This document shows positions 6,144 to 43,327 of a DNA stretch of 44,927 nt, piece by piece. This DNA comes from a phage. The stretch lies in sequence record PZ871095.1, one strand, 5' to 3'. The position numbers and the translations under genes were made by a program. The notes beneath the pieces are model-generated. The model was given only the letters and a program-made list of their open reading frames with translations, was not told where the DNA came from and made no database searches. How positions within the stretch are numbered: the stretch's first letter is position 1; every line of letters starts with the position of its first letter.

Positions 6144-6178
6144 TTTGTTTTCCTTCATATCTCTGTTGGTGTGCAACC

Positions 6179-6208
6179 AATATAATGCAACCAACATACG
6201 CAATGCAA
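6179..6208 (-). promoter_or_regulatory. putative sigma70-type promoter for the minus-strand gene pair (TTGCAT-N18-TATATT)
   Basis: Minus-strand reading cgcTTGCATtgcgtatgTTGGTTGCATTATATTGGTTGCAC; contains two copies of the recurring TTGGTTGCA motif; about 30 nt upstream of the ATG at 6143. Confidence 0.4.
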
Positions 6209-11444: not shown

Positions 11445-11758
11445 TTGAGGCGGCGCGACGCTTTTATGGCCCGCCGCCACCCTCCGAAGATTTAGCTGCA
11501 AGTTTATGGGGCGCGGCCCCCGAAGATGTTTGTCCACCTGTTGCGCTGTGGCCCGACAACGCGAAGGTAGTCGCAGTCTTCACAGATTGCTCCACGCAAT
11601 GGCGCACCGGATTTGGTGGCGCATACGGCATCGACTACGGCGTGCTGGAGTGGTTATTTAAGATGCACGGTATCGAAAACGAACAGCGCGCGTTTAAAGA
11701 TATCAAGCTAATGGAACGAATAGCGCTTGATGAGATGGCGCAGCAGAACCCCGCATAA
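11082..11758 (+). CDS. tail assembly chaperone frameshift product (lambda GT-like, -1 shift near 11435-11441)
   Basis: The -1 frame is open for about 105 codons from the slippery site to a TAA at 11756-11758, with no independent start or ribosome-binding site; canonical position for programmed frameshifting. Confidence 0.6.
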
Positions 11759-11760
11759 TG

Positions 11761-12012
11761 AAGCGGGACGTCCCGCTTTGTCCCGCCCTGTAAAACCGCA
11801 TATCTAATCACTTTCATTGCATAAACTCAAAGCGGGACAGGCGGGACGTCCCGTTTTGTCCCGCCCATGAAATGTGCATACCTATTCTAATTTCGTGCAT
11901 AAAACAAGCGGGACAGAAAGCGGGACAGACAAGGGGCGGGACAAAGCGGGACAGCACCCCGTCCCCGCCAGTGCTGCCGCGGTTTTCAGCCGATCGGGAC
12001 AAGCGGGACAAA
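11761..12012. repeat. cluster of GCGGGACA octamer repeats (about 12-14 copies, direct and inverted)
   Basis: Direct reading: GCGGGAC(A/G) recurs at roughly 11-16 bp spacing, including two GCGGGACGTCCCG palindromic hairpins followed by T-runs; starts right after the chaperone extension stop. Confidence 0.85.
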
Positions 12013-12015
12013 GCC

Positions 12016-12064
12016 CAGTCTTTCAGACTAGACGGGGGTCAACGGCCCCCCTCGTCTGAGACTG
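12016..12064 (+). promoter_or_regulatory. conserved 49-nt bulged hairpin element (copy 1)
   Basis: CAGTCTttCAGACtaGACGGGGG-tcaacgg-CCCCCCTCGTCTGAGACTG folds into an interrupted stem of about 18 bp; near-identical copy at 39700-39749. Confidence 0.5.
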
Positions 12065-12132
12065 AATAAGGTTTGTTTGAAATTTGCTGATACAATGACA
12101 GTCGGCAACTGCATAAAAAAGGGGACTGCATA

Positions 12133-16196: not shown

Positions 16197-16937
16197 ATGT
16201 TAACGAAAAAGGTTAAAAGCGATATCGCCGCGCACGTTGCGGCGTGTCTGCCGGAAGAAGCCTGCGGCCTGGTGGTCATGGTGGGTCGTAGGCAAGTGTT
16301 CGTCCCATGTCTGAACGTATTTGAAGACCCGACCGGCGTGCGCTCACGCAAAGACGCGTTTACTATTAGTGATATGGCCTGGATGGATGCCGAGGATATG
16401 GGCGACGTCGTGCGCGTAGTCCACTCGCATCCGGGCCAGCGCGAGCTTACCCCATCACTGGGAGACGTTAACGGATGCAACGGCAGCGGCGTAGTCTGGA
16501 CCATCACTAACGAATATGGCGACTTTATCGAGATCGACCCTGAAGACCCGCCGCTGGTAGGCCGCCGATTTGTTCTCGGAATTACAGATTGTTATGGCCT
16601 CGTCATGGACTGGCACAAAAAGCAGGGCGTAAACCTGCCAGACTTCCGCGTGCCGTATAACTGGTGGGAGACAGGCGAAAATCTGTATATGGATAACTGG
16701 TACGGCGCGGGCTTCAGGGAATGCGAGGAGAATACGCCGGGGGCGATGGTCATCATGCAGATTAGCGCGCCAGTGCCTAACCACGCTGGGATATTCCTTC
16801 CGGGCAACCAACTACTACACCATATCTACGGCAGTCTGTCGAGCGTAGTCCCCTTCCGGGCAGGATTTTTCCGCGACAATGTGGTTAAATGGGTCCGTCA
16901 TAAAGACCTACCGGGGAATATCACAGAATGGCAATGA
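16197..16937 (+). CDS. tail assembly protein (lambda K-like, MPN/JAB plus NlpC/P60-like)
   Basis: 246 aa; HSHPG metal-binding motif typical of MPN/JAB domains; position in the M-L-K-I-J order. Confidence 0.75.
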   Translation: MLTKKVKSDIAAHVAACLPEEACGLVVMVGRRQVFVPCLNVFEDPTGVRSRKDAFTISDMAWMDAEDMGDVVRVVHSHPGQRELTPSLGDVNGCNGSGVVWTITNEYGDFIEIDPEDPPLVGRRFVLGITDCYGLVMDWHKKQGVNLPDFRVPYNWWETGENLYMDNWYGAGFRECEENTPGAMVIMQISAPVPNHAGIFLPGNQLLHHIYGSLSSVVPFRAGFFRDNVVKWVRHKDLPGNITEWQ

Positions 16938-17545
16938 CAACGTTTAAATTGTACGGCGTTTTGGGACGTCGATTCGGTAAAGTTCATAAGCTGGACTGCT
17001 TCACTCCGGGCGAGGGTATTACCGGCCTGTGCGTGAAGTTACCCGGCTTACAGGACTTTCTAATGTCAGCCCACCTGGACAATATGATGTTCAAGGTGCG
17101 CAAAGGCGACCACACGATGACCGGCTATGATGAGCTGGGTGAGTTCCACGGCAACCGCGTCGTCACCATCGCGCCGGTTATGACGGGCGCAAAAAGAGGG
17201 TTGGGACAATTGCTGGCGGGTGTCGCGATCGTAGTGGCGTCGTTCTATACGGGCGGACTTGCTACTGCCGCTTTCGGGGCTTCGGCTGCAACCGCTGCCG
17301 CTATCGGGACGGCGACGTTTTCGTTCGGGATGTCGATGGCGCTGGGTGGCGTTATGCAATTGCTGTCGCCACAACCGAAAGGATTGCAGACAAGGCAGGA
17401 CGTGGATAACAAGGCGTCGTATGCGTTCGGCGGCCCCGTAAACACTACCGCGCAAGGCACGGCTCTTGGTGTATTATGGGGCGAGCGTGAGATCGGCGGC
17501 GCTATTATTTCAGCCGGAATCGTAACCGAGGACTTGAACGAATGA
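16928..17545 (+). CDS. tail assembly protein (lambda I-like)
   Basis: 205 aa overlapping the K-like gene; glycine/alanine-rich hydrophobic C-terminal half; precedes the J-like gene. Confidence 0.65.
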   Translation: MAMTTFKLYGVLGRRFGKVHKLDCFTPGEGITGLCVKLPGLQDFLMSAHLDNMMFKVRKGDHTMTGYDELGEFHGNRVVTIAPVMTGAKRGLGQLLAGVAIVVASFYTGGLATAAFGASAATAAAIGTATFSFGMSMALGGVMQLLSPQPKGLQTRQDVDNKASYAFGGPVNTTAQGTALGVLWGEREIGGAIISAGIVTEDLNE

Positions 17546-22292: not shown

Positions 22293-24047
22293 ATGGCGGC
22301 GGGTACTCTATCCGTAACGAATAACAGCAAGGCGGTTGTTGGGGTTGGCACGACGTTTACCGCGCTGAAGGCTGGCGACTTCCTGTCGCTGGTAGTGGGG
22401 CAAGTCCCTTACACTGTCGCTATTGCATCCGTAGAAAGTGACACCGCGCTTACGCTGGTGCTGCCGTTCGATGGCCCAACGGCAACCGGCCTCGCATGGG
22501 ATAGCGTGGCGCGCGATACAATGTCGCTTGCGACTATGGGCGTAACCGTCCAGGCGCAGAAAGCATTGCGCTTGCTGATTGCAGATGAGAACAACTGGCG
22601 CGCAATCTTCGGCGACGATGAAGAAATCACAGTGACGTTACCTAACGGGCAGGTTATGCAGGGCATGTCATGGGGCTATCTGTCACAGTTGATGAAACAG
22701 ATCGACCCCGTTGAGATGCGCAACCTGCAACAACAAGCCGCCGCATCTGAAGCAGCCGCGCAAGGATTTCGTAACGAGGCTGAAGGATTTCGAGACGGCG
22801 CGCAAGGATACCGCAACGAGGCGCTCCAATTCCGCACCGACTGCGAAGGGCTGAAGAACGAAACGACAAACCTTCGCAACGATGCGCTCCAATTCCGCAC
22901 CGACTGCGAAGGGCTGAAGAACGAAACGACAAACCTTCGCAACGATGCTAACACAGCTAAGACTGGCGCGGAGACGGCACGCGATCAGGCGCAGAACATC
23001 GCCGACGGTATGGACCCTGGACAGTATATGCAGAAATCTGCAAACCTGAGCGATGTAGTGGATAAGGCGCAAGGCCGCGCGAATATGGGTCTTGGCACTA
23101 CAGATGCCGTGGAGTTTGGTGGGGCCACCCTCAATGGTCACACCCGCATCAATGGCTCGTTGCTGTTGGGGCGTAACCAGTGGGATGGGTCTAGCTGGGG
23201 GAGCTACGGACTACAATCGTCATTCGTCATCATGTCGCCGGATGGAGACTCCGAGCCGGGATTTTACATCAGGCCGCTATCGGGTGCGCCTGGGTACGCA
23301 ACGTCGTTCACCTATAATCTCGCGATTAATCTTTTCAGCACCAGTGCTCGCATCAAGGCGGTTAACTTCTCATCCAGCACTACGACTATGGGATATAACG
23401 AGATGTGGTCACGTGCATGTTTCCAGGGGCAGCCATACGAGGCCCAGGCGGGGGTTGAGAACTACCAATCGCTTGTCGCAGGTACTTGCGGTACGGTATC
23501 ACACGGATTTTACGGTGGCGTTGCGTTCGGCATGATGACTGCTGGCGGGGATGGGTGGCCTGTCGGTCAGATCTCGATCGGCACGCAGGACAGAGCCGCT
23601 GATGGCACTATCGGATTACAAATGCACTTCCGTTTCCATTCATCCGGTAACATTACGTATACGGGGCCGGCGGGGTCGGGGTCATTCCAGCAAATCCCGG
23701 CATCTGACCGCAACATTAAGCATGATATTAAAGACGATAAATCCAGCACAGCATACGATAACATTAGAGCCATTCGATTCCGTAATTTCGTATTTAATGA
23801 TGACGAGCAGGAGCGTATTCGTCGCGGGGTTATCGCACAGGAGCTTGAAGAAATCGACCCGCTTTATGTTAAGCACCGCGAATACCACAACATGGAGCTT
23901 AACGGGCCGAAGATTACTCGACTGGAGCTTGACACGACGCCGCTGTTACTGGACACAATGCGAGCGTTGCAGGATACGATTAAGCAGGTGGAGGAGTTGA
24001 AGGCCGAGATCGCAGCTATGAAACAGGTGGAGGAGTTGAAGAAATAA
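22293..24047 (+). CDS. tail fiber protein with C-terminal intramolecular chaperone (S74 peptidase-like) domain
   Basis: 584 aa from ATG 22293 (GAGGA ribosome-binding site); SDRNIKHDIKD... segment characteristic of autoproteolytic fiber chaperone domains; internal exact tandem repeat. Confidence 0.8.
   Translation: MAAGTLSVTNNSKAVVGVGTTFTALKAGDFLSLVVGQVPYTVAIASVESDTALTLVLPFDGPTATGLAWDSVARDTMSLATMGVTVQAQKALRLLIADENNWRAIFGDDEEITVTLPNGQVMQGMSWGYLSQLMKQIDPVEMRNLQQQAAASEAAAQGFRNEAEGFRDGAQGYRNEALQFRTDCEGLKNETTNLRNDALQFRTDCEGLKNETTNLRNDANTAKTGAETARDQAQNIADGMDPGQYMQKSANLSDVVDKAQGRANMGLGTTDAVEFGGATLNGHTRINGSLLLGRNQWDGSSWGSYGLQSSFVIMSPDGDSEPGFYIRPLSGAPGYATSFTYNLAINLFSTSARIKAVNFSSSTTTMGYNEMWSRACFQGQPYEAQAGVENYQSLVAGTCGTVSHGFYGGVAFGMMTAGGDGWPVGQISIGTQDRAADGTIGLQMHFRFHSSGNITYTGPAGSGSFQQIPASDRNIKHDIKDDKSSTAYDNIRAIRFRNFVFNDDEQERIRRGVIAQELEEIDPLYVKHREYHNMELNGPKITRLELDTTPLLLDTMRALQDTIKQVEELKAEIAAMKQVEELKK
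22821..22946. repeat. exact 63-bp tandem duplication (2 copies) inside the tail fiber gene
   Basis: gcgctccaattccgcaccgactgcgaagggctgaagaacgaaacgacaaaccttcgcaacgat appears twice back to back, encoding ALQFRTDCEGLKNETTNLRND twice. Confidence 0.9.
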
Positions 24048-25246: not shown

Positions 25247-25309
25247 AGTATTACCCTTTTTAGTGAGGGGGCTGTATTGCCCCGACGAGTTAACTATAAT
25301 GCAACCAAC

Positions 25310-25780
25310 CTATTGGTTGCAAGTGAATTTTGCAACGTTTATTGCGTAAATTTTCGGAACCAAATCACCACACGCCCGACGAATTGCCGCGATGTTCTTC
25401 TCGCAATCTTCAATGATGACCAGTTCCGACACGTCTGCGTAGCAGACCATTTTGAATACAGCGCACGCCTTAAACTCTGGCGGCGGGGTGTCGTCCAGCA
25501 TGTGGCGCATAAACAACCGGCCGTTCGGGAAGACCTCCAATTGCTCGGCGGTGGTGTCCCAACATTCTCGCTGCCGGTTGGTCAGATACGCGATCTCGAA
25601 GCCTTGCTCTTTATACATGCGCAGTAGCGGCAGCATATCCATGTTAAGGTCTTCGCGGACATGCGCCTTGTGCCACTTCGCCCAAAAGGTGGATTTAGTT
25701 TTTATGCCCGGCACCAAGTCGGCACGCGCATCACTTGAACCGTTAATAACGCCATCCAAATCGCAAATCAGTAATTTCAT
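25310..25780 (-). CDS. HAD-superfamily hydrolase (putative nucleotidase/phosphatase)
   Basis: 156 aa; N-terminal LLICDLDGVI matches HAD motif I (DxDG); ATG start. Confidence 0.65.
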   Translation of the reverse strand: MKLLICDLDGVINGSSDARADLVPGIKTKSTFWAKWHKAHVREDLNMDMLPLLRMYKEQGFEIAYLTNRQRECWDTTAEQLEVFPNGRLFMRHMLDDTPPPEFKACAVFKMVCYADVSELVIIEDCEKNIAAIRRACGDLVPKIYAINVAKFTCNQ

Positions 25781-26959: not shown

Positions 26960-26988
26960 AATATAATGCAACCAATCTAATTATGCAA
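26960..26988 (-). promoter_or_regulatory. putative sigma70-type promoter (TTGCAT-N17-TATATT) with TTGGTTGCA motif
   Basis: Minus-strand reading aTTGGTTGCATaattagaTTGGTTGCATTATATTgaggg, about 45 nt upstream of the ATG at 26912. Confidence 0.4.
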
Positions 26989-26993
26989 CCAAT

Positions 26994-32898: not shown

Positions 32899-33683
32899 TT
32901 AACGGCGGCGACGTTTACGTGGTGCTTCGTCTTCGTCGTCTTCGTCCTCATCTTCGTCATCGCGGGACTTGCGGCGTTTGCGAGGTTTTTCATCTTCCTC
33001 ATCATCGTCGTCATCGCGGCGCTTGGACTTTTTGGACTTGCGCGGCTTGTCATCTTCATCATCGTCATCACGACGTTTTGACTTCTTAGCCTTGCGCGGT
33101 GCTTCGTCTTCGTCGTCGTTGTCCAGGTCTTCATCGGAGCAAGAAGACCCGCCACCGCCGAAGGCTTCACCGTCATCACGGAAGCGTAAACCCAGCAAGC
33201 CAGCACCGAGTCCCTTGCCGTTGGTGTTGTTCCACGCCCAAATATCAAGTGACACGTTGCAATAACAACCGGAGTAGATCTCCTGGCCTTCAATCTCGTC
33301 GCCGTCGATGGTCAGACCTTGTTCAGTCTGCTTCTCGCCGAGTGACGTTTGAATGATTGGCTGTTTGAACGATTTAGCGTTGATGTACAACATGCCTTCG
33401 AATTCTTCGGTTACTTCGTCGCGCTCGTCACCGTCGCGAACTGCGCATTCCTTAGAATCCTGGGCGTAGTGGCGGTCCATCCACTTATCGGCATTCTTCT
33501 CGGATTTCAGCTTATCGGTGAGCACTGCGCGCGCTGCCGCTTCCACTTTGTCCACCTGCGGATCTTCTTTATCCAGAAGAATCACGGCACGGTATGCCGG
33601 TTTTTGTCCATCCTGTTTAGGGGTATCACGTTCCCAAATTTTCAGGAAGCATACGCGCACATTTTTCAGGTTGACTTTAGCCA
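32899..33683 (-). CDS. SSB-like protein (DUF2815 family) with repetitive charged C-terminal tail
   Basis: N-terminus MAKVNLKNVRV typical of DUF2815; start placed at ATG 33683 after GAGGA; C-terminus carries three repeats of an acidic run followed by PRK(A/S)KKSKRR. Confidence 0.7.
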
Positions 33684-33995
33684 TTTTCCAATTCCTCATT
33701 TTCACATGTATCGGGGTTATTGTGAGCCACCCCGTCCGGCTTGGTTGCTAATCTACTTGGTTGCGCCTGAGCGGTCAAGCATTTTCATTAAAAAGATTTC
33801 TGGTAACGTAGTCGGTAGCGTTCTCGATCCAGCTTAATGGCGGGCGGTCGATATTCTTCGCCACCCAATCGGCGGCAGCTTCGCTATAACCGTCATCCAG
33901 CCAGCGGGTCGGATGCCGAATCATCCACGCCATGCACACAATGCAGGATAAAGCCCAGCGCGCCGATAACAAACATCAATAATATTGCGAATACT

Positions 33996-35914: not shown

Positions 35915-36427
35915 TTAGTCTTCCAGTTCGAAATAGGTTTCTACAATTTCTTTCAGATCTTTGTGGAAGTCTTCTACGTCGTCATCTTCCAGTTTTGCGA
36001 TTGATTTGATCTCGAACGCTTCCAGCAGGTCGTCAAATTCGTCGTTGGCATCGTCGTCATCACCACCGGCGATAATCGCGGCATACTGTTTGATTTCGTC
36101 GCGCATCTCTGCCAGCGGGTCGGCATCTTTCTTGCCTTTGCCTTTCGCCGGAGCTTTTTTGGTTTTCGCCGGTTTTTCGTCTTCGGCTTCTTCATCGTCG
36201 TCATCTTCTACGACTTCTTTTTTGGCCTTACCTTTAGCCGGTGCTTTTTTGGTTTTCGCCGGTGCTTCGTCTTCAGCGTCGTCATCTTCTACGACTTCTT
36301 TTTTCGCCTTAGATGGCTTTTTATCTTCCTGCTTACCAACGGCAGCGCCAACGGTTTCATAATGCTTAGCGATGGTTTCCAGTGCTACTACGCCGCGTGT
36401 AATCAGGTTTACGATTTGTTCAAACAT
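35915..36427 (-). CDS. acidic repeat-containing early protein
   Basis: 170 aa; first gene after the leftward promoter; about 50 D/E residues, internal imperfect tandem repeat (KKEVVEDDD..EDE.PAKTKKAPAKGK twice), very acidic C-terminus. Confidence 0.6.
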   Translation of the reverse strand: MFEQIVNLITRGVVALETIAKHYETVGAAVGKQEDKKPSKAKKEVVEDDDAEDEAPAKTKKAPAKGKAKKEVVEDDDDEEAEDEKPAKTKKAPAKGKGKKDADPLAEMRDEIKQYAAIIAGGDDDDANDEFDDLLEAFEIKSIAKLEDDDVEDFHKDLKEIVETYFELED

Positions 36428-36827: not shown

Positions 36828-37157
36828 ATGAATGTAAACGACGCAATCGAAATGTTAACGAAGACTGTTTGCAGTGAGACAAGCCGGTCATGGGCATACA
36901 CCGATGCCGTGGGGGCTGTGTTATTTGAAATCGAACGACTGCGGCTTACCGAAAAAGAATTGCGCGCCAGGCTGGAACTACTCAACGGTACAGCAGCAAG
37001 CAAGCTGCAAAAGCACAATGAAGAAATGGAAGAATACAAAAAGCAGGTTATCCGTTTGCGCGACGAAGGGAAATCATGGGCGATGATTGCCGAGTTGACC
37101 GGAATTAATCAGAGCACAGTGCGCTCCTGGGTACGCAATAATAAAACTTCTAAGTAA
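36828..37157 (+). CDS. putative HTH DNA-binding regulator
   Basis: 109 aa; C-terminal KSWAMIAELTGINQSTVRSWV resembles a helix-turn-helix; first rightward gene of the divergent control region; GAGGG ribosome-binding site. Confidence 0.6.
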   Translation: MNVNDAIEMLTKTVCSETSRSWAYTDAVGAVLFEIERLRLTEKELRARLELLNGTAASKLQKHNEEMEEYKKQVIRLRDEGKSWAMIAELTGINQSTVRSWVRNNKTSK

Positions 37158-37167
37158 GGCCACGGCA

Positions 37168-39432
37168 ATGAGCTTAATTAAATTCGCTGTAACACGACCC
37201 GCTAAAAAAGGCGAAAAAGCCAGGGCGGAAAACTTCCAGATGACCACCGATGAGTTTTTCGAATTTATCAATGACGCGAAAGAAATATCCTCGGTGCATA
37301 TCAACAAGACGGAAGATAAAGCCGAGTATGCGCGCCGCAAGCGTAAGGCCGATGGCATCGTGGCGTATACCAGTGACGGATTGCGTCGTAAGACCAGTGC
37401 GGTGGACCGCTCGATCCTGTTCTTTGATATTGACCGCACCGACACCCGCACCCTGCGCCGCTGCCGTAAGGCGTTCATCGACGCGGGTCTGGAACACGTA
37501 TTTCACACCACCACCGGCGACCGCCACCCGCTGAAGGGTGGCACGCGTTGCGCCCGTTTCCTGGTGCTCACTGACAAGCCTGTACCGGCTGAAGACCTGG
37601 GCCGCGTCCAGTATGCACTATTACACCAACTGGGCCTGTCAGATGTGGACTTCGACGATTGCACGAAAGACACAAACCGCCTTATGTACCTGCCTCACCA
37701 GCAATCGGTTGTTAAGTGTCACTACGGCAAACGCGCCCGCGTCCGTCGTCTGCTTCGCCTGGCTGATAAGCTGGGAGTGGAGAAAGAGGAAGTACGCCGC
37801 GAACTAACCCAGGGCGATGACGGCGTGGCGGACGGTATTCTGGATTGGTGCTTCCAGGCAGGATTCGAACCGCTGTCGTCCGGTCGTGGTTATGAAGTGC
37901 CGTGCCCTAACGAACACCTGCACAGCGGCGAAGGGTCCACCGCTATCATGGTTAAGGATGGCGAGATCCGTTTCAAGTGTATGCACACCGGCAACGAGTG
38001 TTGCTCGGAACTGAACAGACACCAGCACCTGGCGCTACGTCTTATCGGGATCCCGGACCACCTGAACGTCGAACCGCACAACATGTCACGTAAGCAAATC
38101 GCCGCCATCCTCCCAGGACTGGACGACGAGGAAGTGGAATCGTGCTATGAACATATCGTTGATGCGGTCGGAGACGGCGACGAGTACGGCGGATGTACTG
38201 ACGCTGACCTGGATAACGAACCGGTCGCACTGTTCAGTAAGCACGACCCGATCATAGAAGGCCTGGTCAACTTCAAATCGACCTGGTATATGGCTGGCGA
38301 GTCGAACATCGGTAAATCGTTCTACGTGCTGGGTCAAATGGGTGCGGTTGCCGCGGGGATTCCGTTCGGGGGTGCGAAGGTCGTCCAGTCCCATTGCTTC
38401 TATTTCGACGCGGAAGGTGGCGAAGCCTCCAACCAGCGTAAGGAAGCATTGCAGATCAAATATGAGCACGACCTCGACAAGCTGCACATTATCGATCTGC
38501 AATCACGCGGCTGGGATATCACCAGCAAATCCGGCTTGCGTGAAGTTATCAGCTTTATCAACCGCACCGCTAACGGCGAACCGGTTGGTCTGGTGGCGTT
38601 CGACTCCCTCAACCAGACTGTTGCGTTGCGGTCCGCCGATGCTAAACCGTTCGACGAGAACAACGCCAGCGATATGGGTGAAGTGGTCAAAGCGCTGAAG
38701 GCCATTGCGGAAAATACCGGCGGCAGTGCGGGCGTCATCCACCACCCGGCGAAAGGCGCAAACGGCAGCAGATCCCCCCGCGGGTCCGGCGCACTGCATG
38801 GCGCTGTCGATTCCGCGTTCTTCCTGGAGCAACCGGACGACAACCAGCCAGGTCAATTGAACCTGTATCACGAAAAGGCACGTAACGGCATCAAGCAAGC
38901 GCCGCGCGGCTTCGTCCTGCTCAAGTGCAAGGTTAAGGTGGATCTCCGCAAGTCCGAGGCGTTCGAAGCCCACCAGTCCACCAGCACCGGGCCGGACTTC
39001 GGTGATGTAGTTGCAGGTTGGGACGTCAAGCCGATTGCATCCACGCCACGCGACGAGACTCTTTACCTCGTACCGGTCGCCCTAGCACCGTTCGCCATCG
39101 AACAGGCGAAGGCCTCGGGCAAGGCCGCAGTTAAGGAAGAGAACTCCGCAGGACCGCGCAACGAAAAAGAGAAAGTGCTTTATGCGGCACTGGAAAAACT
39201 GATGGAAGATAACCCGGACCATACCGGATTCAGTAAATCGGCAATTGTCCGCCAGGCTGGACTGGCGAAAGGTGGCACATCGACGAAGGCAATCGACGAT
39301 ATGGTCGAGCGCGGAGTGTTAGGTTTTTATACAGACCCGCACACCAGGGCCATCTATGGGTCGTCTAATATCGTCATAAAAACGAAGATACCCATCACGC
39401 TTTCGGCGACCGATGACGACCTGAAAGATTAA
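37168..39432 (+). CDS. DNA primase/helicase (primase-like N-terminus plus P-loop ATPase)
   Basis: 754 aa; Walker A GESNIGKS and Walker B-like LVAFDSLNQ in the C-terminal half; Cys/His cluster in the middle; replication-module context. Confidence 0.75.
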   Translation: MSLIKFAVTRPAKKGEKARAENFQMTTDEFFEFINDAKEISSVHINKTEDKAEYARRKRKADGIVAYTSDGLRRKTSAVDRSILFFDIDRTDTRTLRRCRKAFIDAGLEHVFHTTTGDRHPLKGGTRCARFLVLTDKPVPAEDLGRVQYALLHQLGLSDVDFDDCTKDTNRLMYLPHQQSVVKCHYGKRARVRRLLRLADKLGVEKEEVRRELTQGDDGVADGILDWCFQAGFEPLSSGRGYEVPCPNEHLHSGEGSTAIMVKDGEIRFKCMHTGNECCSELNRHQHLALRLIGIPDHLNVEPHNMSRKQIAAILPGLDDEEVESCYEHIVDAVGDGDEYGGCTDADLDNEPVALFSKHDPIIEGLVNFKSTWYMAGESNIGKSFYVLGQMGAVAAGIPFGGAKVVQSHCFYFDAEGGEASNQRKEALQIKYEHDLDKLHIIDLQSRGWDITSKSGLREVISFINRTANGEPVGLVAFDSLNQTVALRSADAKPFDENNASDMGEVVKALKAIAENTGGSAGVIHHPAKGANGSRSPRGSGALHGAVDSAFFLEQPDDNQPGQLNLYHEKARNGIKQAPRGFVLLKCKVKVDLRKSEAFEAHQSTSTGPDFGDVVAGWDVKPIASTPRDETLYLVPVALAPFAIEQAKASGKAAVKEENSAGPRNEKEKVLYAALEKLMEDNPDHTGFSKSAIVRQAGLAKGGTSTKAIDDMVERGVLGFYTDPHTRAIYGSSNIVIKTKIPITLSATDDDLKD

Positions 39433-39507
39433 ATTTTGCGCGCGTTGGTTGCCGATATGGGAATTCCCATATCGCTAAAAGATTAAATTTTGCGCGCATT
39501 GGTTGCC
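39424..39507. repeat. two 30-bp direct repeats flanking a perfect 20-bp palindrome
   Basis: AAAGATTAAATTTTGCGCGC(G/A)TTGGTTGCC at 39424-39453 and 39478-39507; palindrome GATATGGGAATTCCCATATC at 39454-39473; first repeat includes the primase stop codon. Confidence 0.8.
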
Positions 39508-39591
39508 ATTTTGGGTGTTTTTATCATGTCGTATTGGTTGCCGTGTTGTGTAGCTATAATGAATAGTTATGCAATAAAACTGCATAAAGTA

Positions 39592-39697
39592 AGCGGGACA
39601 GAAAGCGGGACAAACAAGGGGCGGGACAAAGCGGGACAGCACCCCCGTCCCGCCCCGGATGGCGCGGCCCGGAGAGGAGCGGGACAGGCGGGACAAA
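39592..39697. repeat. cluster of GCGGGACA octamer repeats (about 7 copies), second locus
   Basis: aagcgggacagaaagcgggacaaacaaggggcgggacaaagcgggacagc...gagcgggacaggcgggacaa; highly similar to 11901-12012. Confidence 0.85.
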
Positions 39698-39699
39698 CC

Positions 39700-39749
39700 C
39701 CAGTCTTTCAGACTAGACGGGGGTCAATGGCCCCCCTCGTCTGAGACTG
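39700..39749 (+). promoter_or_regulatory. conserved 49-nt bulged hairpin element (copy 2)
   Basis: Same sequence as 12016-12064 except one loop base (tcaatgg versus tcaacgg). Confidence 0.5.
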
Positions 39750-39909
39750 CATAAAATCCGGGGATTGCAAAATACACGGCAGCATGATGCGAAGTGCGGT
39801 CGTTGACGAACTAGGCAACCAATGCGAGTTGTATTATGCGGAGTGAAAAATGCGGTTTGCAGTCACAGCGGATAGCGATCAACTTTTTCATGCGCGTGAT
39901 TAATATTGG

Positions 39910-39938
39910 TTGCACACCCCCAGGCGTCCTGCTATATT
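39910..39938 (+). promoter_or_regulatory. putative sigma70-type promoter (TTGCAC-N17-TATATT) flanked by two TATTGGTTGCACACC repeats
   Basis: -35 and -10 hexamers with 17-nt spacer about 30 nt upstream of the ATG at 39967; the -35 lies within one TTGGTTGCA copy and the second copy follows the -10. Confidence 0.4.
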
Positions 39939-39966
39939 GGTTGCACACCAACATGAGGACTGAACA

Positions 39967-43276: not shown

Positions 43277-43327
43277 GCTTGACTCGCAACCAACACAGGG
43301 GCCATACTGCAACCAATCAACTGGAGG

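Follow-up and report, generated by a model that had tools for sequence, protein, structure and literature searches.

A duplicated iteron array with a terminal hairpin in a Dhillonvirus genome, a candidate replication-origin module

Two copies of an iteron and hairpin module

A block of 174 nt occurs twice, at 87% identity, in sequence record PZ871095.1, a complete genome of a Dhillonvirus (HK578-like E. coli siphophage) that was analyzed here in its full length of 44,927 nt and is referred to as the window. Module A (11896-12069, + strand, repeat family D2) lies at locus A, between the tail chaperone and tape measure genes. Module B (39581-39754, + strand), at locus B, is the same block placed 149 nt past the stop codon of the helicase-primase gene. 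The order of elements is TGCATAAA, four direct repeats of GCGGGACA, which we call iterons, a GC-rich spacer holding an inverted or degenerate iteron copy, two more repeats, 5-6 nt, and a hairpin of 49 nt. Every gene from 36828 through the end of the window and on to 24047 is on the + strand, and both hairpin copies are oriented alike, in the sense direction of these genes.

Dhillonviruses are HK578-like siphophages with genomes of ~44 kb. A BLAST comparison of both loci with 50,697 phage records returned 159 records, nearly all of them Escherichia or Shigella Dhillonviruses, with McMelon and vB_EcoS-UDS3lw (99%) as the top matches. By its annotation, McMelon is virulent and has no RNA polymerase, and its replication genes form a T7-like set: PolA, a gp2.5-like SSB, an exonuclease, a helicase and a 'replicative helicase-primase'. 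Literature searches found no account of replication origins, regulatory maps, repeats or transcriptomes in Dhillonviruses, and no published description of the hairpin element in these phages.

In module A (iterons spanning 11908-12010, + strand), GCGGGACA starts at 11908, 11920, 11936, 11946 and 12003, while the repeat at 11994 is the variant TCGGGACA. The iterons of module B (39593-39695, + strand) are all GCGGGACA, at 39593, 39605, 39621, 39631, 39679 and 39688, and an inverted copy occupies 39647-39653; this array of six direct and one inverted GCGGGACA lies 161-263 nt past the stop codon at 39432. Start-to-start distances of the iterons are identical in the two modules (12, 16, 10, 48 and 9 nt). 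GCGGGACA was counted 18 times in the window against 2.1 expected (shuffle maximum 5), with 14 of the 18 copies inside the two loci, and all five occurrences of TGCATAAA are there as well. The spacer between the iteron groups of module B (39640-39678) has an AT-content of 0.13-0.30, so that an AT-rich unwinding region between oppositely oriented iterons is absent from it; AT-rich DNA only flanks the module. Oppositely oriented iterons do occur upstream of module A, in two tandem 78-nt units (11763-11903, + strand, repeat family D8), each composed of a TGCATAAA box and a palindromic iteron triplet, GCGGGAC-GTCCCGC-TTT-GTCCCGCC.

Promoter-like sequences accompany both modules. An extended -10 element, TGaTACAAT (12088-12096, + strand), is located between hairpin A and the tape measure ATG (12133), 24 nt past the hairpin, and is unchanged in 15 copies of locus A. 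A TATAAT -10 element (39555-39560, + strand), preceded by ATTGGTTGC at 39533-39541, reads into module B.

Several additional features were noticed around the modules. The distance from the chaperone ORF to the tape measure ATG is ~690 nt (11445-12132), including ~470 nt without a credible ORF, and such a long gap ahead of the tape measure gene is unusual for a siphophage tail module. Immediately 5' of the first iteron of module B (39547-39588) there are GTGAATAGTTATGCA and an inverted repeat, TTATGCA-N7-TGCATAA. GTGAATAGTTAT was also found ahead of the iterons of Salmonella phage GRNsp27 (L218), and GTGAATAGT(T) in a Kagunavirus promoter region (L220/L221) beside a DicA-like repressor gene. 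A CGGCA(G/A)C motif is positioned 30-40 nt 3' of the hairpin at both loci (12103-12109 and 39777-39783). It recurs farther downstream, up to ~100 nt, in the relatives L225, L226, L227, L250 and L251, whose iterons are unrelated. Following a -10-like element, this motif may represent a conserved transcript start or priming site.

The 593-aa tail fibre gene contains a 63-nt tandem duplication in perfect frame and 98% identical (22812-22937, family D6). GAC/GAA-rich repeats at 32915-33135 and 35969-36298 (families D1 and D3-D5), in genes of the - strand, encode acidic tails of the gp2.5-like SSB and of a 170-aa protein, and a 90-nt tandem repeat is present at 36121-36299.

Structure of the hairpin

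Hairpin copy A occupies 12016-12064 and consists of the arms CAGTCTTTCAGACTAGACGGGGG and CCCCCCTCGTCTGAGACTG around the loop TCAACGG; copy B, with the loop TCAATGG, occupies 39701-39749. Neither copy was assigned to a strand. The two copies differ by this one loop base, in agreement with the earlier note on this DNA, which was made from sequence alone and had described a 49-nt bulged hairpin present twice. The second copy is indeed present, yet it starts at 39701; the start of 39700 given in that note includes one extra C. The note had estimated an interrupted stem of about 18 bp, and folding of the + strand as RNA gave 20 pairs in both copies, arranged in four stacked segments and with two bulges, at energies of -27.0 and -27.6 kcal/mol (z = -4.4 and -4.2). 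This fold was matched by 1 of 200 dinucleotide shuffles for one copy and by 0 of 200 for the other. The - strand folds equally well (-28.1 and -27.5 kcal/mol), and with DNA parameters the energies are -12.7 kcal/mol for the + strand and -13.3 kcal/mol for the - strand (z ~ -3.8). An apical U-G pair is specific to the + strand.

The element is made up of five GTCT/AGAC units and a G5/C6 palindrome. No T-run follows the hairpin on either strand, the sequence 3' of the stem being AATAAGG or CATAAAA on the + strand and GGGCTTTG on the - strand, and the hairpin was not called in a terminator scan, so the view that it is no canonical intrinsic terminator holds. A search of the whole window with Rfam 15 gave no match at the gathering score; at relaxed thresholds only generic miRNA-precursor hairpins appeared, far below threshold. 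The array of iterons ending in the hairpin had escaped the earlier note. The hairpin is the 3' end of a larger duplicated module and not a stand-alone element.

Conservation within Dhillonvirus

Conservation was examined in IMG/VR Dhillonvirus contigs, 15 of which provided locus B and 14 locus A. The spacers, flanks and loop drift at both loci, in contrast to the iterons, the TGCATAAA box and the two arms of the hairpin, none of which varies. Among 16 distinct hairpin sequences the 5' arm is identical in all except for its first base, and 14 of the 20 pairs never vary, with the variation confined to the loop end of the stem. Covariation within the genus is uninformative because both arms are invariant. 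The hairpin sequence is therefore under strong purifying selection within the genus, and the expectation that conservation of both arms implies a function is upheld. Three variants alter the centre of a mini-palindrome in the 3' arm (GTCT-G/A/TC-AGAC); recognition of double-stranded half-sites would explain these changes no less well than pairing.

The exact 17-nt 5' arm was found twice and co-oriented in 14 of 16 related IMG/VR contigs. Of the two contigs with a single copy, one begins just downstream of locus A and the other is from a divergent relative that has its copy at locus B. The same variants, both of the loop and of the last iteron pair, turn up in the A copy of one genome and the B copy of another, indicating that the two copies exchange sequence. 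Throughout IMG/VR, the exact 5' arm occurs in Dhillonvirus-like contigs only, three matches elsewhere being chance matches without a hairpin, and one chance match was obtained in 185,579 genomes. Searches with a looser hairpin pattern in IMG/VR and with a flank pattern in JGI metagenomes returned only chance matches outside the known relatives.

The helicase-primase and a small HTH protein

The helicase-primase gene next to module B (37168-39432, + strand) encodes a 754-aa protein with an AEP primase fold, an AAA_25 RepA-like helicase and a C-terminal winged helix. Its N-terminal 350 residues (37168-38217) have no Pfam match; a confident structural model shows an AEP/Prim-Pol primase followed by a Cys/His zinc-binding segment, and the primase family appears to be missing from Pfam. 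RSF1010 RepB' is among the top fold matches of the primase domain. The middle of the protein is an AAA_25 domain that weakly matches RSF1010 RepA.

An AlphaFold (AF2) model of the C-terminus, built from 24 homologues, is a winged helix of the order H1-H2-H3-wing with pLDDT of 81-91. Most of its top Foldseek matches are MarR-type winged-helix regulators, the best with an E value of only 8e-3, and the lower matches include linker histone H1 and an ORC subunit (E 8e-3 or weaker). Searches with the C-terminal fragment alone returned no homologues, while the full-length query did. This winged helix, which comprises the last ~90 residues, is the fastest-evolving part of the protein, with 51-58% identity between homologues compared to 69-80% elsewhere. 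Identity of the winged helix is 82% between relatives L250 and L253, which both have GTGTGGCA as the iteron, and only 57% between the window and L224, which both have GCGGGACA. We propose that the helicase-primase is the initiator and the reader of the iterons.

Directly upstream of this gene, a small HTH protein of 109 aa is encoded (36828-37157, + strand; Sigma70_r4_2/HTH_23). It was considered as an iteron reader and rejected: its HTH (GKSWAMIAExTGINxSTVRSWVRN) hardly changes between lineages whose iterons are of four kinds, which makes such a role unlikely.

A separate observation concerns ATTGGTTGC, which has 25 matches in the window at no more than one mismatch against 12 expected. Most are intergenic and beside -10-like elements (among them those at 6173-6195, 22268, 25301-25320, 26968-26993, 29927, 33740-33764, 36633, 39444-39541, 39815, 39905-39944 and 43286-43317), and the motif is also kept in relatives with different iterons. 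It would be a phage-wide promoter or operator signal, for which the small Sigma70_r4-like HTH protein would be a candidate reader.

Relatives with other iterons

Homologues of the helicase-primase form groups at 67-70% and at 44-49% identity. In each group, a gap of 350-650 nt downstream of the gene is filled with short repeats that differ between the groups. Iterons of the 67-70% relatives are GCGGGACA in L224, GTGTGGCA in L250 and L253, GTGTGCCA in L251 and GGTGCCA in L252 and L347, while those of the 44-49% relatives are GGGGAGA in Salmonella phage GRNsp27, CTCGCAA in L225 and others, always in the downstream gap. GRNsp27 has one iteron cluster in its entire genome and none ahead of its tape measure gene. 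Since the distant relatives have the module beside the helicase-primase gene only, module B is probably the ancestral copy and module A a later duplicate specific to Dhillonvirus.

In two of the relatives the hairpin is retained despite the new iterons, as CAGTCTTTCAGACTAGACGGGGTG-TTTGG-CCACCCGTCGTCTAAGACTG in L250 and as CAGTCTAAGAGACTGAGATCGGGAG-CTTGCA-CTCCCTCCCGTCTCTAGTCTG in L251. Compensatory changes in these hairpins include GGGGG/CCCCC to GGGAG/CTCCC and C:G to G:C. When seven hairpin types were aligned with RNAalifold, 19 pairs were kept and 3 of the 19 had changed on both sides; in the same set several cells were broken, and L251 adopted an alternative register. The covariation that the earlier note suggested looking for among related phages was not seen within the genus, where variation occurs only beside the loop, and the compensatory changes of two divergent relatives are no more than suggestive of pairing.

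The best local hairpin is also well above shuffles in GRNsp27 and L225, and that of GRNsp27 is an inverted-iteron palindrome rather than a separate terminal stem-loop. Shuffled sequence folds as well as the best hairpin of L226 and of L227, so the idea that the hairpin is conserved in every lineage proved only partly true.

CGGGACA arrays in unrelated phages

With two close copies of GCGGGACA as the criterion, 120 loci were obtained from 2.9 million viral contigs. An AAA_25 helicase ORF is present in 19 of 46 loci with at least 6 CGGGACA per 300 bp and in 2 of 61 loci with at most 3 copies, neither of these two being adjacent to the repeats (Fisher p = 8e-7, for loci which were fetched solely for two GCGGGACA repeats and are not all phylogenetically independent). 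In 15 cases measured outside Dhillonvirus, the 3' end of the helicase ORF is no more than ~360 bp from the array, with one exception (659 bp). Ten of ten array-associated proteins tested contain AAA_25, and seven of the ten contain a Pfam primase domain, either Prim-Pol or Toprim plus a zinc ribbon.

Read on the sense strand of the gene, these arrays finish with a short GC-rich palindrome that has an AT loop, preceded by direct and followed by inverted iterons; together these form a long perfect hairpin without a T-run. The Dhillonvirus hairpin occupies a place equivalent to this terminal palindrome. No sequence similarity could be detected between the C-terminal domain of the Dhillonvirus protein and the one shared by the other CGGGACA-associated proteins, nor between the latter and any other protein of the window, and the common iteron may therefore reflect convergence or an effect of how the loci were selected.

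Arrays of GCGGGACA also adjoin other replication genes. In L088 and L116 the neighbor encodes a 496-660-aa protein without AAA_25, and a long AT-rich tract separates oppositely oriented repeats. The array of L028 is inside a lambda-O-like gene, and that of L032, an IMG/VR contig, is next to another replication gene. GCGGGACA may be a widely reused origin motif.

A candidate replication origin and its relation to known systems

Taken on balance, our assessment is that the module probably is a replication-origin module with the hairpin as its DNA stem-loop, and that locus A is a second origin or a helper site; we hold this view with considerable reservation. The possibility of a cruciform or other DNA-level element, secondary in the earlier note, is the one favored by the sequence context. 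In the proposed mechanism, the GCGGGACA direct repeats would serve as iterons read by the C-terminal winged helix of the AEP-primase/RepA-helicase fusion, which would assemble on them and open the DNA. The adjacent inverted repeat would then be extruded or exposed as a single-stranded DNA hairpin and could be used as a loading or priming site, comparable to ssiA/ssiB of RSF1010 or to the stem-loop origin of pRN1. Module B, beside the initiator gene, would be the ancestral origin, and module A, the later duplicate, would act as a second origin or as a helper site similar to crr of P4. Protein binding, DNA melting, priming and any role in replication are steps that we infer, whereas the anatomy, conservation, gene association and domain folds were established in the analysis. 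Phages with T7-like replisome parts can also start replication at promoters. GC skew in the window tracks the direction of transcription and is uninformative on the origin.

The RSF1010 (IncQ) origin is one of four known systems with which the module can be compared. In this plasmid, RepC binds the iterons and RepA unwinds the DNA, after which two ssi hairpins are recognized by the AEP primase RepB' (PMC8567376). This recognition is sequence-specific for the single-stranded ssi hairpins, and the primer starts just 3' of the hairpin; oriV contains two 40-nt ssi sites on opposite strands, each with a hairpin formed by nt 7-27 and, 3' of this hairpin, a GTG start (PMC8567376). Iterons followed by a conserved hairpin, a RepA/AAA_25 helicase and an AEP primase matching RepB' are found in Dhillonvirus as well. 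Unlike the plasmid, in which the three functions are separate, Dhillonvirus fuses them in one 754-aa protein, and each module has a single near-palindromic hairpin of 49 nt where the plasmid has two ssi sites of 40 nt. The Dhillonvirus hairpin has no sequence similarity to ssiA or ssiB and no GTG directly 3' on either strand. Another difference is that the module is located in a lytic phage genome, and in two copies.

The position of the iterons resembles that in SaPIs. Rep and PriRep5 of these elements are self-loading helicases whose C-terminal winged helix reads iterons of 5-6 nt directly downstream of rep (PMC9371898). Shared with Dhillonvirus are the iterons just past the ORF of the initiator helicase, the C-terminal winged helix, the variable iteron sequence and, in PriRep5, the fusion of a primase to the helicase (PMC9371898). 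The likeness drawn here between the SaPI and Dhillonvirus systems is one of layout. SaPI origins have an AT-rich centre with oppositely oriented iterons, in contrast to the GC-rich centre and mostly direct iterons of Dhillonvirus, and are without a long terminal hairpin. An AT-rich centre is also typical of lambda origins, unlike the GC-rich spacer found here.

Two separated clusters of one iteron, one of them beside a gene for a protein with primase, helicase and winged helix, are common to Dhillonvirus and P4. The P4 clusters, ori and crr, are bound by the winged helix of its primase-helicase (PMC4234260). The primase of P4 alpha is of the Toprim type and its helicase belongs to SF3, in contrast to the Dhillonvirus protein. 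P4 uses TGTTCACC as its iteron, and no hairpin element is known to have been described there. In Dhillonvirus the whole module, hairpin included, is present in the second copy.

Plasmid pRN1 offers a match in gene order, with a small repressor gene, a gene for an AEP primase-helicase with a winged helix, and then a stem-loop. Replication depends on this stem-loop, which can be moved to another position but whose stem must be intact (PMC4234260). Similar stem-loops are present 3' of a replication gene in Bordetella phages BIP-1 and BPP-1 (PMC4234260). The HTH gene (36828-37157), the helicase-primase gene (37168-39432) and the hairpin (39701-39749) follow each other in the same order in Dhillonvirus. 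The pRN1 system is different in having an SF3 helicase and a 100-nt stem-loop without iterons, compared to AAA_25 and a 49-nt hairpin after an iteron array.

Some defining features of each of these systems are missing, so the module is of the same kind as these origins but a member of no one family. A more specific version would be an IncQ-like origin served by a single polypeptide with RepB'-like primase, RepA-like helicase and iteron-reading winged helix, with the near-palindromic hairpin acting as a combined ssi site for priming on both strands, module A as a working second origin or an obligatory crr-like partner looping to module B, and membership in a large, so far undescribed class of origins with CGGGACA iterons and a palindrome in many unrelated phages; this we regard as a tentative proposal that is more apt to fail than to hold in all of its parts. 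The module introduces no new principle, since origins with iterons, with ssi hairpins or with stem-loops are already well known.

Alternative explanations

The module could instead be a cluster of double-stranded operators, with palindromic AGTCT/AGACT half-sites read by a dimeric regulator and GCGGGACA by a transcription factor. Its function would then be transcriptional switching and not replication, and the long-range complementarity would be a by-product of a repeated palindrome. This is consistent with the composition of the hairpin from GTCT/AGAC units and the G5/C6 palindrome, with variation only at the mini-palindrome centres (G, A, TC) while the loop drifts and the arms remain invariant, with the promoter-like elements flanking both modules, and with the nearby gene for a small protein with an invariant HTH. 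However, the apical stem of L250 and L251 is altered in sequence with complementarity kept, the iterons vary and the small HTH does not, and in unrelated phages such arrays track primase-helicase genes rather than regulators; we consider the operator explanation unlikely. Because both copies are co-oriented with + strand transcription, a role in RNA is possible as well. The hairpin in + strand transcripts might be an RNase III substrate or a 3' protective stem and would part the helicase-primase transcript from the genes that follow, as well as the tail chaperone transcript from that of the tape measure. RNase III sites of T7 are imperfect hairpins of similar length, intergenic in polycistronic transcripts and repeated in the genome; here there are only two copies, always joined to an iteron array. 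Some 20 pairs with internal bulges are of a suitable size for RNase III, transcription through the hairpin is likely, the TATAAT element at 39555-39560 reads into module B, and the apical U-G pair is on the + strand only. Against this, Rfam gave no match, the - strand folds as well as the + strand, the downstream genes have promoter-like sites of their own, and a generic double-stranded RNA substrate would not need its arms and bulges to be so invariant in sequence. Moreover, such processing leaves unexplained why the iteron array is always ahead of the hairpin and why it is linked to primase-helicases across phages. An RNase III site was the explanation put forward in the earlier note, with an antitermination RNA as its alternative; neither gained positive support from Rfam, strand asymmetry or covariation within the genus, and RNA processing or stabilization seems to us rather improbable.

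Transcription could also be stopped or paused at the modules, by the hairpin together with the upstream GGCGGGACGTCCCGTTTT palindromes of locus A, leaving it to the next promoter to set the expression of the tape measure gene and of those after it. The GC-rich stem is indeed stable, the invariant extended -10 element is 24 nt past hairpin A, and terminators have been annotated in these regions in PTXU06 (by ARNOLD) and CS16 (origin unstated). These annotated terminators are iteron palindromes and not this hairpin, as in MK373789, where ARNOLD predicted a terminator at an iteron palindrome (16919-16939). With no T-run on either strand, a terminator scan silent on the hairpin, and the iterons and their association across phages left unexplained, a terminator or insulator seems to us improbable. 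The antitermination RNA would be a cis-acting element of the HK022 put type, present twice at the head of long operons, and each copy is indeed sense to a long run of + strand genes. The put RNA of HK022 has a two-stem architecture, however, while there is a single hairpin here; module A is surrounded by tail genes instead of following an early promoter, the more distant relatives have just a single copy, and Rfam found no match, which makes this explanation very improbable. Finally, the modules might be protein-coding with an incidental hairpin, as in public records that annotate 'hypothetical protein' ORFs across both (OR896838 CDS0017 and CDS0053). ORFs are present at 11872-12069 and 39490-39744, and McMelon has annotated CDS there. 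Their starts and ends differ between genomes, several are broken by 1-nt length variants, and conservation tracks 8-nt repeat units and hairpin arms instead of codon positions. Not being consistently open between genomes, these ORFs are probably spurious; their coding potential was rejected, and we give this explanation almost no credence. Ideas of a CsrA sponge, a pac site and a T7-type primase GTC site found no support and were dropped.

Implications for Dhillonvirus biology

Dhillonviruses are common and easily isolated E. coli phages, represented in the BASEL collection and used in therapy and biocontrol studies. If the modules do function as replication origins, the origin of these phages would be pinned to two short DNA segments, and the unannotated C- and N-terminal domains of the helicase-primase would be given a role. 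Spurious 'hypothetical protein' and 'terminator' annotations could be corrected in more than 100 GenBank records. For many uncultured phages, the same interpretation would provide a simple sequence rule for locating origins, which is to look behind a primase-AAA_25 helicase gene for an array of iterons with a palindrome at its end.
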